The notes under the pieces: model-generated
What the model was told of the DNA's origin: nothing
What the model saw: only the letters and a program-made list of their open reading frames with translations
The model's database searches: none
Assembly (NCBI GenBank): GCA_963733575.1
Contig: CAVTDJ010000002.1
Coordinates: 1,235,171 to 1,299,170, forward strand
Reading direction: 5' to 3'
DNA: 64,000 bases
Source: an uncultured Alphaproteobacteria bacterium
GTDB lineage: Bacteria; Pseudomonadota; Alphaproteobacteria; Rhizobiales; Xanthobacteraceae
Translations under genes and position numbers: made by a program
Shown here: positions 36,992 through 44,115 of the stretch, piece after piece
Numbering within the stretch: position 1 is the stretch's first letter
Layout: every line of letters begins with the position of its first letter

Positions 36992-37531
36992 ATGTCAAGT
37001 CACAAGGGTGCCACACGCAAGAAAGCCGGACACGCCGAAGCCGAACCGGTGGTCGATATCGGTTTCGGTTCCTTGTTCAAGGGGCTCGGAGACTTTGTCG
37101 GCGTCCTCGGCAAGCTTGTGGAGGCCGGCGAGCAGCATATCGAGCGGACTGGAGAGTTCAAAGTCAAAGGCCTCGGCGACAAGGGGCGCGGCGTCTATGG
37201 CGTGAGCGTGCGGGTCGGGCTCGGCGGCGAGCCGCACGTCGAACGCTTCGGCAACATCCGCACCACCAAAGAAGGCCCGGAGGTCGTCGATGTACGCGAA
37301 CCGCTGATCGACGTCTTCGACGAAGGCAGCGAAATCGTGATCGCCGCCGAGCTCCCTGGCGCCAAGGAAGATGCGATCGAGATCGAGGTCCGTGGCGACG
37401 TTCTTGCGCTCAGCTCGTCGGGCGAGCGGCGCTACGCCAAGGAGGTCTTGCTGCCGAGCCCGGTCGATGCCGCATCGCTGCGGCGGTCCTTCAAGAACGG
37501 TCTTTTGGAATTGCGACTGAAGAAGGCCTAG
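36992..37531 (+). CDS. Hsp20/alpha-crystallin-domain protein, GvpH-like
   Basis: The C-terminal alpha-crystallin domain reads IDVFDEGSEIVIAAELPGAKEDAIEIEVRGDVLAL...LLPSPVDAASLRRSFKNGLLELRLKK. The N-terminal part has a Gly-rich GVYGVSVRVGLGG segment. A GGAG SD precedes it. Confidence 0.75.
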   Translation: MSSHKGATRKKAGHAEAEPVVDIGFGSLFKGLGDFVGVLGKLVEAGEQHIERTGEFKVKGLGDKGRGVYGVSVRVGLGGEPHVERFGNIRTTKEGPEVVDVREPLIDVFDEGSEIVIAAELPGAKEDAIEIEVRGDVLALSSSGERRYAKEVLLPSPVDAASLRRSFKNGLLELRLKKA

Positions 37532-37533
37532 TC

Positions 37534-38625
37534 ATGTCGAATGCGATCGAGCACTTCTCGCGCACCCGCGTGGAGAACACGACGCTGCAAGTGATTGCGG
37601 ATACGCAGCGCAATCTCGATTGCCTGATCCGAGAAGAAGAGTCGGTGATCCGGCACTATAGCCGCCTGGGCACATGGCCGCACAGCTCGGTCAACATGTT
37701 CGTGGTTGAAAACCTGCAGCCGCTCGTTGCGCAAATCAAAAGTGCGGCATTGTTGTCCTCGGTCGTCGCCGACGACATCGACCGCCGGCCGATGGTCAAC
37801 ATCTACGATGCAGCCGATCTGGCGGAATGCACAGTCTTCGTGAACCGGCATGCCCTCGAGAAGGAAGGCATCTGGAATGATGCAATTTCCTTGCGCGCCT
37901 TGCTGGCGCATGAGCACGGCCATCCTTTGGCCGAGAACGAGACGGTGCGCGCCGCTCGCGAGCTCTCGGTCGAAGTCACGGCTGAGAGCCGGACGTCGAC
38001 TACGGAAATCGTCGGAGTTCTCCATCTCCTGGCCGATCGTCTGTGCGTTCATTCGCCGCAGGAAGTGTTCGCAAACGAGATCGTGGTTCGCGCTGGCTTC
38101 GATGACGCCTTGTTTCACCTCGACATGGGTGTCGTGGAGAAAGCCCGCTTGGGCGTCGCCAAGCGGACTTCCCTGGTGCAAGGCCTCGAAAAGCGGGCCA
38201 AGGACGGCAAGCTGACCGCTGTCCAGGTGGCCGGGCTTCTGCTGGTCGGGGATCTGCAGGCGTATTTGGGATTTGCGCTTGAGACCGCGCCATTCCTGCG
38301 CGCCGACCACCGACAGCAAGCGCAAGCGCTCGAGGCCGCCCTGATCGAAGGCGTGCTGTGCCATCTCGATCCGGCGGCGCCGCTACTCTACGAAAAATTC
38401 CGCGACCATTATCTGCGACTGAGAACCGATTTTACTCCCGCCGAGATGAAGGTCTGGAGTAGCGAGGCGCTGGGCCTTCTTGCCGACGCAATCCAGCAAA
38501 GACACTTGCCGCTTCGTTTCTCATTGGTTCGGACGCATTCCGCGGCCAAACCGCGGCGCCAGTCGCGAATGGCGCCTACTTCCATCGTCCACAGTGCCAT
38601 CGGGCATGATGGTGGCTCGCCATGA
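37534..38625 (+). CDS. Hypothetical protein with an HExxH zinc-metalloprotease-type motif
   Basis: 363 aa. LRALLAHEHGHPLAENE places HEHGH at nt 37909-37923. It starts 2 nt after the Hsp20 stop and its stop overlaps the gvpF start (ATGA). The first 185 codons of the 36979 ORF in the track are an out-of-frame shadow over hsp20. Confidence 0.6.
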   Translation: MSNAIEHFSRTRVENTTLQVIADTQRNLDCLIREEESVIRHYSRLGTWPHSSVNMFVVENLQPLVAQIKSAALLSSVVADDIDRRPMVNIYDAADLAECTVFVNRHALEKEGIWNDAISLRALLAHEHGHPLAENETVRAARELSVEVTAESRTSTTEIVGVLHLLADRLCVHSPQEVFANEIVVRAGFDDALFHLDMGVVEKARLGVAKRTSLVQGLEKRAKDGKLTAVQVAGLLLVGDLQAYLGFALETAPFLRADHRQQAQALEAALIEGVLCHLDPAAPLLYEKFRDHYLRLRTDFTPAEMKVWSSEALGLLADAIQQRHLPLRFSLVRTHSAAKPRRQSRMAPTSIVHSAIGHDGGSP

Positions 38626-40849: not shown

Positions 40850-43033
40850 ATGGATGGCGGCCCCCTCAATACTACCTATCGGGTTGTGGAAGCGCTCCCC
40901 AAGGACGTCGGCCGTGGTCTCGCTCGCTTGGATCCGAAGGACATGGCCGAGCTCGGTGTCGAGATCGGTGACGTCATAGACGTCACTTCAACGCAGACGA
41001 CCGTGGCTCGCGTTATGCCGGCTCATGTCGAGCTGCGCGGCAAGCGCTCGATTCAGATTGACGGCATCTCGCGCGCCAACGCCGGCGCCAGTCTTGGCGG
41101 GCAGGTGAGCGTGCGCTTGACGGCGCCGAAGACGGCCCGCACGATCTTGTTGGCGCCGACCGATGCGCCGGCGCGCGCCGCACGCGGCCTCGAAGGTCGC
41201 TATCTGACCCGCCTGCTCGACGGCCTACCGATGGTCCCCGGCGACCGCGTTCGCGTCAATCCGTTCGGCACGCAGATGCGCAATTTCGTCGTGACGAAGG
41301 CAACGCCGCCGGGGCCCGTCATCGTCGCGCCTACGACCGTCATCACTTGTGAGGGCGGGTCCGCGCCGCGTCGAGAAGCGGTCACCTACGAGGATATCGG
41401 TGGACTGCACAAGGAGATGCGCCGCGTCCGCGAGATCATCGAACTCCCCCTCAAGTATCCCGAGGTCTTCGCGCATCTTGGCGTCGAGGCACCCAAGGGC
41501 GTCCTGCTCTACGGCCCGCCGGGCACCGGCAAGACTTTGATCGCGCGCGCCGTCGCCCACGAATCCAACGTTCATTTCATCCACATCAACGGCCCGGAAA
41601 TCATCGACAAGCTCTATGGGGCGAGCGAGGCCAATCTGCGCAAGATGTTCGAGGAGGCGGAAAAAAACGCGCCTTCCATCATCTTCATCGACGAGATCGA
41701 TGCCATCGCACCGAAGCGCGAGCAGATGGCGGGCGAGCGTCAGGTCGAGCGTCGCGTCGTCGCCCAGCTGCTATCCTTGATGGACGGTCTCGAAGCGCGC
41801 GGCCAGGTGGTCCTGATCGCCGCCACGAATCTTCCGAACTCGCTGGACCCGGCATTGCGCCGGCCCGGGCGTTTCGATCGGGAGATCGAGATCGGAATTC
41901 CGGACAAGGAGGGCCGACGCGAGGCACTGGAAATCCACAGCCGCGGGATGCCGCTGGCCGAGGCCGTCGACCTGGAGCGGATCGCCGGCATCACCCACGG
42001 ATTCGTCGGCGCCGACCTGGCTGCCCTATGCCGCGAAGCCGCCATGAGCGCGCTGCGACGGTTGATGCCGGACATCGATTTCAAGACCACCGAAATACCT
42101 TACGACAAGCTGGCTGCGCTCAAAGTCGAACGGACGGATTTCGAGGGAGCCCTGGCGGAAGTCGAGCCATCCGCTCTGCGCGAGGTCGCCACCGAGATCT
42201 CCGACATGCGCTGGGAGGACGTGGGCGGGTTGGACGAGGTGAAGCGGCTGCTGACCGAGGTCGTGCTGTGGCAACTGCGCTACGACACCCTCTTTCAACA
42301 GGCAGGGGTCCGTGCGCCCAAGGGCGTCCTTCTGCACGGCGCGCCGGGCACCGGCAAGACGCTTCTCGCCAAGGCGCTCGCCGGCGAAACCGAAGCGAAC
42401 TTCATCGCAGTGAAAGGTCCACAGCTGCTGAGCATGTGGATCGGCGAGTCGGAGCGAGGCGTGCGCGAGATGTTTCGCAAGGCGCGCCAGGCCGCTCCCT
42501 GCATCATCTTCTTCGACGAGATCGACGCGGTGGCGCCGCGCCGCGGTGGCGGCGGAGGCGGTCAGGTCACGGAGCGCGTGGTCGCGCAACTGCTTACTGA
42601 GCTCGACGGCATCGAGGATCTGAAGGGCGTGGTGGTGCTGGCGGCGACGAACCGCATGGACCGGTTGGATCCGGCCCTGCTGCGTCCGGGCCGGCTGGAG
42701 TTTCACATCGAGTTGCCGATGCCCGACGCAGCGGCGCGACGGGCAATCCTGCAAGTCCATCTCAAGCGCATGCCGCTGGGCAAGGACGTGAAGATCGACA
42801 CGCTGGTGCAGAGCACCGAAGGACTCGTGGGCGCCGATCTCGAAGGACTCTGCCGCCAGGCGGCGTTGTTCGCAATCCGTGAGGTGATCGAACCGGCCGC
42901 GACCAGGACTCCTCGCGCAAAGGAAGGCGCGGGGGCCAGCCATGCGGTGGAGCTGCTGCCCAAGCTGACAATCGCCAAACGGCATTTCGACCTGGCGCTC
43001 ACCGAGCGCGATGCCAACAGGAGCCGGCCATGA
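40850..43033 (+). CDS. Cdc48/VAT/p97-like AAA+ ATPase (N domain plus two AAA modules)
   Basis: 727 aa. The N-terminal double-psi-barrel-like region reads [37 protein letters not shown]1 has [15 protein letters not shown] and [15 protein letters not shown]2 has [15 protein letters not shown] and [14 protein letters not shown]. Confidence 0.88.
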
Positions 43034-44115
43034 GCCGCATCTATGTCTATGCCATCGTCCCGGCCACCGAGCGCCAACCGTTCCATGTCGCCGGCGTGTG
43101 GGCACCCGAACCTCAGGTGCGGACAATTCGCGGAGACGCGCTCGCCGCCGTCGTCGGCACAGCTCCTCCTATCGATTTCCGTGCCTTGTCGCGGGAGGAC
43201 GCGGTTCGCTACCTGCTGGCGCATCAACGCGTCGTGGAATCCGTGATGCGAACCTCGGCGGCGCTGCCGGTCAAATTCGGTACGACTTTGCCGGACGAAG
43301 CCGCGGTGACCAGCATGCTCATGCGTGGCGCCGCGGTTCTGGCAGCGCCGCTTATCGAGCTTTCGCAGCACGTTCAGATCGAGCTCATCGTCTCATGGAG
43401 CATTGACGATATCCTCCGCGAAGTCGCTGCGGAGGACGCGGTTGTCCGGCTCAAGGCTCAGATCGCCGCTCAGGCCGCGGGCGCCACCAGCGAACAACGT
43501 CTCGCGATCGGAAAGTTTGTAAAGGACTCGATTGATCGTCGCCGCGAAACCTGCCGAAGCCGCATCGTGGCGACAGTACGATCCGTCGCGGCCGACCTGG
43601 TCGAAAATTCCCTTATGGACGACCGAATGGTCGCCAATCTGGCTTTGTTGCTGGCGAAGGATGCGAGCGATGCGCTGGACCGGCGATTGGCTGAGCTCGA
43701 CGAGGAATTCGGGAAGCGGCTCAATTTTCGTTGCATAGGCCCGCTGCCGCCCTACAGCTTTGCCACCGTCGAGGTGAGCTTGCCGTCGTTCGAAGCTGTC
43801 GACCGCGCCCGCCGGGTCCTAAGCCTCGGCGAGAAAGCGGGCCTTGCGGAAATCAAGTCGGCCTATCGTCGGCAGATTCGGCAAGTGCATCCCGATGTCA
43901 CGACCGCGGCGCCCGTTAACGAAGGCGACGCGACGAGGCTCACCGACGCATACAAGACTTTGATGAATTATGCCGAAGCTTTGCCTTCAGCGGCTGGCGA
44001 CGAGGTCCCCGGTGAAACCGGCTATCGCTTCGACCGCGACACCGTCGAGGGCTCCATACTGGTGATGGTACGTCGCCAGGAGTTGCCGGTCGCGAGCGCG
44101 GACACTCGGTCATGA
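43030..44115 (+). CDS. GvpL/GvpF-family protein (paralogue 2) with a C-terminal J (DnaJ) domain
   Basis: The N-terminal ~250 aa are GvpL/F-like ([11 protein letters not shown]...[24 protein letters not shown]...[10 protein letters not shown]). They are followed by [30 protein letters not shown]...[11 protein letters not shown], which matches the J-domain helix II-HPD-helix III pattern. The HPD codons are at 43888-43896. Confidence 0.8.

Follow-up and report, generated by a model that had tools for sequence, protein, structure and literature searches.

A gas-vesicle gene cluster with an embedded small heat-shock protein, orphan HExxH protein, Cdc48-type unfoldase and GvpL/J-domain fusion

The DNA considered here, called the window throughout, is a stretch of 64,000 nucleotides (nt) from the genome of an uncultured alphaproteobacterium of the family Xanthobacteraceae (assembly GCA_963733575.1, contig CAVTDJ010000002.1, positions 1,235,171 to 1,299,170). 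It contains an 18-gene gas-vesicle protein (gvp) cluster that runs along the plus strand from 33705 to 46367, as delimited from the open reading frame (ORF) listing and from Pfam and NCBIfam scans of the window (Table 1). These scans place GvpA, GvpN, four copies of GvpF/L, GvpG, GvpO, GvpJ, a GvpS/M-like protein and GvpK in one locus. Set among them are genes for a small heat-shock protein (sHsp) of the Hsp20/GvpH type, an orphan protein with an HExxH motif, a double-ring AAA+ unfoldase of the VAT/Cdc48 type (CDC48) and a fusion of a GvpL/F domain with a J domain (GvpL::J). A sequence-only reading of this DNA had described four such genes, interleaved with gvpF, gvpG, gvpO and gvpJ, and the domain scans and the ORF listing, which place all four on the plus strand, agree with it on their positions. 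Clusters of this four-gene lineage were found in more than 50 bacterial species belonging to four phyla.

The Hsp20 and HExxH genes are separated by a gap of 2 nt, and start and stop codons overlap by 4 nt at the HExxH/gvpF, CDC48/gvpL::J, gvpL::J/next gvpF, gvpN/orf115 and gvpO/orf94 junctions, as expected for co-translated operon partners. A scan for promoter and terminator consensus sequences between 32 and 47.5 kb returned counts that were not above those of shuffled controls and did not inform the operon boundaries.

Four quality-control proteins in the cluster

Residues 110-178 of the Hsp20 form an alpha-crystallin domain (PF00011; E 7.5e-5; 23.2 bits, cutoff 20.8), and the C-terminus of the protein (...NGLLELRLKKA) lies right at the end of that domain. 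It matches the NCBIfam family of archaeal Hsp20 proteins, NF041800, with an E-value of 1.8e-39 and 134.9 bits, slightly under the cutoff of 140, and scores 18.3 bits against the GvpH family PF05455, for which the threshold is 22. Most orthologues carry PF00011 and often PF05455 as well, many of those at 60-87% identity have PF05455 on record, and the homologue from Methylosinus passes PF05455 at 28.9 bits and is named GvpH by the Prokaryotic Genome Annotation Pipeline (PGAP). On the strength of these dual orthologues and of the PGAP label, we regard the window sHsp as GvpH-type. Hsp20 genes have been noted in gvp clusters before (PMC2963123), and GvpH keeps GvpM from aggregating in a holdase-like role (PMC6107691). 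Like GvpH of Halobacterium salinarum and the Hsp20 proteins of Chlorobi, Geobacter and Polaribacter clusters, the window protein has an alpha-crystallin domain and its gene lies within a gvp cluster; unlike described GvpH, the Hsp20 of the window lineage always has the HExxH gene as its downstream partner.

The HExxH protein belongs to no Pfam or NCBIfam family, and a sequence profile search of the Protein Data Bank (PDB) gave nothing relevant. Its profile retrieved 118 hits from 1.84 billion representative sequences, all of them members of the HExxH family or fragments, so that no bridge to a known peptidase family emerged. By chance alone, a few percent of proteins this long would contain one HExxH motif. 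In the window protein the motif (HEHGH, residues 126-130) is part of an invariant block, LLAHEHxHPLAEN, and an alignment of 18 diverse members with 39-78% identity to the window protein leaves H126, E127, H128, H130, P131, L132, E134 and N135 unchanged, as well as E177, N181 and E182. Of 77 orthologous ORFs, 75 retain the pattern HExxHxxxE, and an NE motif follows some 50-70 residues from the HExxH motif. We infer the metal-binding glutamate to be one of the three invariant candidates for the third metal ligand, E134, E177 and E182. In its N-E pair the FANE motif is similar to the motif that supplies the third ligand (NE) in gluzincins of families M1 and M4, a similarity that serves as a lead and not as a test.

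In an AlphaFold (AF2) model of the HExxH protein with a mean confidence (pLDDT) of 86.6, the motif sits in a helix (residues 117-132) that comes after a beta-sheet and before a helix with the invariant N-E pair. The protein thus has a helix-borne HExxH with a downstream acidic candidate ligand, the arrangement expected of a zincin. A Foldseek search with the model returned nothing at E <=0.001; ranks 1-11 are nearly all zincins, among them the M1 aminopeptidases 4fgm, IRAP and ERAP, anthrax lethal factor and M9 collagenases, with YbeY lower in the list. Weak matches to Peptidase_M48 (E 0.03) occur in four of the 18 aligned members. From the motif and the model we predict a gluzincin-like metallopeptidase of a new orphan family. 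The order of beta-sheet, HExxH helix and helix with an N-E pair is shared with gluzincins; the invariant histidine within the motif (HEHxH), the distance of some 50-70 residues to the NE motif and the isolation of the family set it apart from them. A tblastn search of a plasmid collection with the HExxH protein found no match.

CDC48 scores 905.4 bits against TIGR01243 (cutoff 802.65) and contains CDC48_N (PF02359), CDC48_2 (PF02933), two AAA domains (PF00004) and two AAA lids (PF17862). The closest solved structure, and the top match in the PDB, is Thermoplasma VAT (5g4f). In the window protein and 57 orthologues (58 sequences) the Walker A and B motifs of both D1 and D2 and the arginine fingers are intact, and the pore loops read K-[LWFMY]-Y-G in D1 and [MRKL]-W-[VIA]-G in D2; as judged from these residues, they are translocation-competent in both rings. 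The tyrosine of the D1 loop is presumably the VAT-like state. The full N-D1-D2 architecture is that of archaeal VAT/Cdc48 and eukaryotic p97, and, unlike these, the CDC48 of the window lineage is encoded in bacterial organelle-biogenesis operons. Two candidate Rosetta-stone fusions, P0078 (HExxH with GvpF, 473 residues) and P0221 (AAA with GvpL, 440 residues), were rejected because their lengths fit frameshift-merged neighbours.

GvpL::J begins with a GvpL_GvpF domain (PF06386, residues 4-245, E 3.6e-53) and continues with a DnaJ domain (PF00226) at residues 263-313 (approximately nt 43816-43968; E 4.6e-8; 33.5 bits, cutoff 27.8). The HPD tripeptide, H287-P288-D289, is invariant in 14 diverse fusions, and nearly all of the 120 best homologues share the two-domain architecture. 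In Foldseek searches the model (pLDDT 84.3) matched the GvpF structures 4qsg and 6l5d with an E-value of 1e-13 and the J domains of DnaJ, CbpA and DnaJB1 with probabilities of 0.96-1.00 and root-mean-square deviations (RMSD) of 1.6-2.8 A, the CbpA J domain at 1.6 A over 55 columns. The C-terminal part of about 50 residues (nt 43969-44115) consists of a variable linker and a conserved tail, CRFDRxTVExTLLIAVRRQE, with a predicted short helix and strand. The covalent link between the J domain and the fold of a gas-vesicle protein makes a role specific to gas vesicles very likely. Pfam and NCBIfam scans found no Hsp70 among the cluster genes, so the J domain would have to use the DnaK of the host, and the sequence-only reading, which had suggested a self-contained pathway, does not hold on this point.

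Table 1. Genes of the gvp cluster, neighbouring features of the window and the comparable gene groups of a Methylosinus and a Methylocella locus
Feature	Coordinates	Strand	Evidence or remark
Response regulator with LuxR/GerE DNA-binding domain	32453..33385	+	directly upstream of gvpA
gvpA, major shell protein, 69 aa	33705..33914	+	PF00741 E 2.9e-16
Alpha-helical protein in GvpC position, poor conservation	34068..34619, start possibly as early as 33933	+	no Pfam/NCBIfam family
orf253, conserved in cluster lineage	34787..35548	+	no Pfam family; present in most loci
gvpN, MoxR-like AAA+ ATPase	35545..36603	+	TIGR02640, 373 bits
orf115, small protein, weakly conserved across loci	36600..36947	+	no family
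GvpH-type small heat-shock protein (Hsp20), 179 aa	36992..37531	+	PF00011, NF041800
Orphan HExxH protein, 363 aa, predicted gluzincin-like metallopeptidase	37534..38625	+	invariant motif, AF2 model
gvpF paralogue 1, start overlapping HExxH stop codon	38622..39419	+	PF06386 E 7.6e-70
gvpG	39457..39717	+	PF05120 E 1.4e-23
gvpO	39721..40125	+	PF05800 E 6.3e-23
orf94, small protein, conserved in many loci	40122..40406	+	no family
gvpJ, GvpA-family protein	40422..40772	+	PF00741 E 3.9e-17
CDC48, VAT/Cdc48-type double-ring AAA+ unfoldase, 727 aa, N domain + D1 + D2	40850..43033	+	TIGR01243
gvpL::J, GvpL/F domain + J domain fusion, 361 aa	43030..44115	+	PF06386 + PF00226
gvpF/L paralogue 3, split in two frames (44112-44732, 44608-44985)	44112..44985	+	two PF06386 halves
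gvpS/M-like GvpA-family protein	44933..45187	+	PF00741 E 7.5e-15
gvpF/L paralogue 4	45184..45972	+	PF06386 E 1.6e-42
gvpK	45981..46367	+	PF05121 E 1e-31
Sulfatase-like gene, seemingly split	46863-47462 and 47435-48553		by eye
tRNA-Leu (anticodon TAA)	49792-49877	-	
GvpH/Hsp20, ~190-aa hypothetical protein, CDC48	10550-13838 of locus L082 (Methylosinus sp. C49)		
GvpH/Hsp20, ~190-aa hypothetical protein, CDC48	18090-21459 of locus L083 (Methylocella tundrae)		

Distribution of the four genes and variant clusters

A scan with the HExxH profile of one genome per species yielded 98 loci, of which 80 were kept; 56 of these, with at least 1.5 kb upstream and at least 7 kb downstream, were evaluable. 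The HExxH gene stands beside gvp genes in 55 of the 56, and 52 loci contain at least five gvp families. Hsp20 is present in 53 and CDC48 in 54, while the J domain was detected by BLAST in 50 and by inspection in at least one more (L053). Carriers among the Alphaproteobacteria include Xanthobacteraceae, Hyphomicrobiaceae, Beijerinckiaceae, Acetobacteraceae, Xanthobacter agilis and Prosthecomicrobium pneumaticum; those among the Chloroflexota include Anaerolineae, Dehalococcoidia, Ktedonobacteria, Oscillochloris and Chloroploca, and further carriers belong to Thermoleophilia and Armatimonadota. Gas vesicles have been described for the mesophilic Chloroflexales group that includes Chloroploca and Oscillochloris (PMC7332563). 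The genes follow essentially one order in the loci of all four groups, and the recurrence of the association in this order in dozens of species is far beyond chance. The co-occurrence of the four genes, which the sequence-only reading had proposed to check, is borne out by these counts.

Distance matrices of HExxH, CDC48, Hsp20 and GvpL::J, calculated for the window and 17 loci that passed strict filters, correlate among themselves and with the matrices of GvpN and GvpF (r = 0.92-0.97), and the highest value (0.97) is that of HExxH with CDC48. Sequence divergence among these loci reaches 68% for HExxH and 39% for CDC48. Taken together, the correlations and the divergence show long co-inheritance under purifying selection.

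In four rearranged loci from Chloroflexota and Dehalococcoidia (L051, L056, L060 and L061), gvpA, gvpN and gvpL::J lie on the other strand and the Hsp20, HExxH and CDC48 genes are still adjacent (in L056 at 9273-9788, 10001-11023 and 11047-13167). This adjacency, kept despite rearrangement, indicates that the trio behaves as a unit. A second and more divergent Hsp20 gene follows CDC48 directly on the opposite strand in L051 (3900-4136), L056 (13236-13484) and L060 (13621-13860), so that the unfoldase gene is flanked there by two sHsp genes.

Several single loci depart from the common arrangement. At L012 (9974-12002), which is not a gvp cluster, the gene of an HExxH homologue with 54% identity precedes a GvpL/F gene, and its neighbours encode a Crp-family regulator, a TPR protein and a TadE/G-like protein. 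This arrangement suggests that HExxH and GvpF proteins work as a pair. The only clear member of the HExxH family outside a gas-vesicle context is at L069 (9896-10993, Rhodomicrobium sp.), a 36% identical homologue with no gvp gene within 10 kb; on one side of it lie an RND efflux pump and the HlyD partner of the pump, on the other a globin-domain gene. In the cultured, gas-vacuolate Prosthecomicrobium pneumaticum (L075, 15016-16030), about 570 nt after CDC48 matched no query, similarity to GvpF/L begins in the next ORF only near 16030, and the GvpF/L proteins that follow have no HPD; the J-domain fusion seems to be missing or degraded in this species.

Clusters of other organisms contain parts of the set. 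Synteny with the window extends to a plasmid cluster of gas-vacuolate Octadecabacter arcticus, which encodes orf253 (33% identity, E 4.5e-35), Hsp20 and a 360-residue GvpL::J with PF00226. On plasmids of Methylosinus sp. C49 and Methylocella tundrae the gvp cluster is organised in another way and ends with GvpH, a hypothetical protein and CDC48. Their CDC48, labelled 'CDC48 family AAA ATPase' by PGAP in Methylosinus, is 53-56% identical to the window protein, and neither an HExxH protein nor a J domain is found in these clusters. The Methylosinus hypothetical protein that precedes CDC48 (193 residues) was considered as an HExxH relative and rejected when hhalign showed no relationship to the HExxH profile. 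The ATPase region of M. tundrae is annotated as several short ORFs and a 490-residue AAA ATPase and may be disrupted. The regulatory genes upstream of the Methylosinus and Methylocella clusters differ from that of the window and encode a sigma-54 activator, a response regulator, and a sensor kinase or PAS protein. A gvp cluster of Spartinivicinus has none of the four genes. Among the clusters compared, the window lineage carries the fullest set of quality-control parts.

The remaining genes of the window cluster and its surroundings deserve brief mention. Three proteins without a family, orf253, orf115 and orf94, keep their positions in the cluster lineage across phyla and are candidates for gas-vesicle accessory proteins, and the helical protein in the GvpC position has homologues in alphaproteobacterial loci only. 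The response regulator encoded just ahead of gvpA, in the same direction, plausibly controls the cluster. The frame of gvpF/L paralogue 3 shifts near 44590-44630, and the orthologue in the closest genome (L001, 16640-17512) is intact with 290 residues, so that the split gene is either a pseudogene or the product of a single-base assembly error. The sulfatase-like gene just 3' of gvpK seems to bring a second frameshift within 4 kb, which suggests indel errors typical of long-read assemblies; split matches also occur in several loci from related metagenome-assembled genomes. The tRNA-Leu gene is located approximately 3.4 kb downstream of the cluster.

Possible roles of the four-gene module

The reading that we favor, at a rough probability of 0.55, is that of a horizontally spread gvp lineage with a client-handling module for the hydrophobic shell proteins of the GvpA family (GvpA, GvpJ and GvpS/M). 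The sHsp would hold shell protein that is not yet assembled, in the way that GvpH acts on GvpM in haloarchaea. Through its GvpL/F domain, the fusion would bind clients of the GvpJ or GvpS type or the nucleation complex, and its J domain would fire host DnaK at that place, either for handover of the client or for release of GvpL in the manner of auxilin acting on clathrin. Misassembled, aggregated or collapsed shell protein would be threaded by the Cdc48 hexamer, and the HExxH protein may cleave the material delivered by the unfoldase or process a Gvp partner. It is known that GvpL binds GvpJ and GvpM, that GvpF binds GvpA (PMC6107691, PMC9501494), and that expression of shell proteins leads to proteotoxic stress in E. 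coli (PMC12848028). The occurrence of several different combinations of quality-control parts with gvp genes supports a gas-vesicle-related function, and GvpH with CDC48 in Methylosinus and Methylocella and Hsp20 with GvpL::J in Octadecabacter represent an independent recurrence that supports the module.

A number of observations weigh against this reading. The syntenic Octadecabacter arcticus cluster has neither HExxH nor CDC48, and cyanobacterial, Bacillus, Serratia and haloarchaeal clusters assemble vesicles without CDC48, J domain or HExxH (PMC9501494). Neither sequence nor fold searches gave a significant match between the HExxH protein and a peptidase: the best hit in Foldseek has an E-value of 0.04 and a TM-score of about 0.3, and the TM-scores of the matches are about 0.2-0.3. 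None of the 58 CDC48 sequences ends in HbYX, their C-termini being variable, and CDC48 has no known protease partner; docking on the 20S proteasome is thus not expected. The C-terminal IxI/V extension of canonical oligomeric sHsps, as read by eye, is absent from Hsp20, and a J domain was undetectable in four to six loci, Prosthecomicrobium L075 being one. Finally, co-inheritance of the island inflates the co-occurrence counts: because whole islands are transferred horizontally, the loci are not independent events, and the counts show shared history and not interaction.

The Octadecabacter and Spartinivicinus clusters indicate that the four-gene module is accessory and not a general requirement, and the comparison shows that vesicles as such can be made without CDC48 and HExxH. 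The specialisation for gas vesicles put forward in the sequence-only reading accordingly gains from the fusion of the J domain to a GvpF fold and from co-inheritance and loses from the clusters of these two organisms, the first without HExxH and CDC48 and the second without all four genes. Its suggestion of a possible protease keeps the conserved HExxH motif in its favor and is weakened by fold matches that are weak and by the lack of significant similarity to peptidases.

The separability of CDC48 and HExxH from vesicle formation bears on an unlikely alternative, in which the module is dedicated to disassembly and recycling. Cdc48 would extract GvpA from collapsed or surplus shells, the HExxH peptidase would degrade it and the sHsp would buffer released subunits; the purpose would be a quick loss of buoyancy or the clearing of very stable collapsed shells and not an aid to assembly. 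A VAT-like CDC48 with aromatic pore loops in both rings suits extraction and unfolding, the trio remains contiguous in rearranged clusters, and Octadecabacter lost CDC48 and HExxH together and kept its assembly genes, which fits a function separable from assembly. Against this, nothing in the sequence separates disassembly from quality control during assembly, the peptidase activity is only predicted, and Methylosinus-type clusters have CDC48 without HExxH.

We consider it more doubtful still that CDC48 and HExxH carry out regulatory proteolysis, setting the level of a regulator or of a GvpC-like outer-surface protein and thereby the timing and strength of the vesicles. There is precedent in the haloarchaeal NTPase GvpD, which lowers the activator GvpE (PMC9501494), the LuxR-type response regulator lies directly upstream, and orf253, orf115 and orf94 are possible targets. 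The J domain, however, is fused to the structural and assembly fold GvpL/F and not to a regulator, the sHsp partner points to aggregation-prone clients, and Pfam scans detected no DNA-binding domain in the conserved proteins without a family.

That the four genes are general stress chaperones merely travelling with a mobile gvp island is very improbable: although sHsp, J-domain and Cdc48 proteins are generic quality-control parts and the cluster has clearly moved between phyla, so that linkage could be historical (PMC7332563), the J domain is fused to the GvpF fold in essentially every homologue, the HExxH family is both rare and almost confined to the neighbourhood of gvp genes, active sites are kept at the highest sequence divergence observed, and CDC48 and GvpH have been recruited into a second gvp architecture.

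Beside the client-handling reading stands a more specific and tentative proposal, which we regard as possible and would not press. Hsp20, HExxH and CDC48 might form a hitherto unrecognised bacterial machine, a split, FtsH-like unfoldase and peptidase that is dedicated to an organelle and extracts subunits of the GvpA family from shells that are misassembled or collapsed, and GvpL::J might be the first J protein to aim Hsp70 at a protein-shelled organelle. If this were true, gas vesicles in this lineage would be actively remodelled or recycled and not just diluted by growth.

Relation to known systems and significance

In combining a holdase and a J protein with an AAA+ hexamer that acts as threading motor, the gvp module recalls the bi-chaperone disaggregation system of sHsp, DnaK/DnaJ and ClpB, from which it differs in having a Cdc48-type motor without the M-domain for coupling to Hsp70 and in the lack of an Hsp70 gene in the cluster. 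FtsH, an AAA+ protein fused to an HExxH peptidase of family M41, provides a parallel for an AAA+ motor that is optionally joined by an HExxH peptidase. In the window the HExxH protein is a separate polypeptide, and we take it to be unrelated to M41 because no FtsH structure is among the top 50 Foldseek matches listed.

Additional ATPases in gvp clusters are not without precedent. Castillo and Saier (2010) noted ArsA-like ATPases alongside Hsp20 in gvp clusters and proposed that they energise a step of biogenesis (PMC2963123). Like these and GvpN, CDC48 is an extra ATPase embedded in a gvp cluster; unlike the ArsA/Get3-type and MoxR-type (GvpN) enzymes, it is a double-ring AAA+ protein of the classical clade, and GvpN is present in addition. 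Without HbYX, the window CDC48 also differs from proteasome-activating Cdc48 proteins, such as archaeal Cdc48/VAT and the actinobacterial Cpa/ARC type. The J-domain fusion follows a principle known from auxilin (clathrin coats), HscB (the Fe-S scaffold) and CbpA/DjlA, in which an HPD-bearing J domain is combined with a domain that binds a specific client. GvpL::J is unlike these proteins in that its targeting domain has the GvpF/GvpL fold and that a conserved tail (RFDRxTVE...VRRQE) follows the J domain, and a full-text literature search found no described J-domain protein with this architecture.

Part of the picture was already known or visible. Hsp20/GvpH in gvp clusters is published, and databases contain the CDC48 label (PGAP) and the combination of GvpL with DnaJ, which Pfam architectures already record. 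The new functional layer proposed in the sequence-only reading is for that reason new in part: Hsp20/GvpH and its chaperone role have been reported (PMC2963123, PMC6107691), and no paper was found on an association of gas vesicles with CDC48, a J domain or HExxH in the full-text search, which did not cover subscription-only papers. A major gas-vesicle review from 2022 lists no CDC48, J-domain or HExxH components. We class as new the gvp cluster with an embedded proteostasis module, including one orphan family and an undescribed J-domain architecture.

The central question of gas-vesicle biology is how the very hydrophobic, amyloid-like GvpA stays soluble, is delivered and is inserted into the shell, and a second is whether vesicle shells are ever dismantled. 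The cluster lineage offers natural and genetically separable handles on both in the form of a GvpL predicted to recruit Hsp70, a Cdc48-type motor, a GvpH-type holdase and a new HExxH family, and natural variants for comparison are at hand in Octadecabacter (Hsp20 and J domain only), Methylosinus (GvpH and CDC48 only) and Spartinivicinus (none). Gas vesicles also serve as acoustic reporter genes, and proteotoxic stress and the chaperone capacity of the host limit their heterologous expression (PMC12848028, PMC10344784); an obvious candidate for improving it is a proteostasis module that the cluster itself encodes. A Cdc48 without the HbYX tail whose gene belongs to an organelle operon would widen the known functions of Cdc48 in bacteria. 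At the level of comparative genomics, the pattern is solid and widely conserved, and it makes the questions of GvpA chaperoning and of vesicle dismantling testable.

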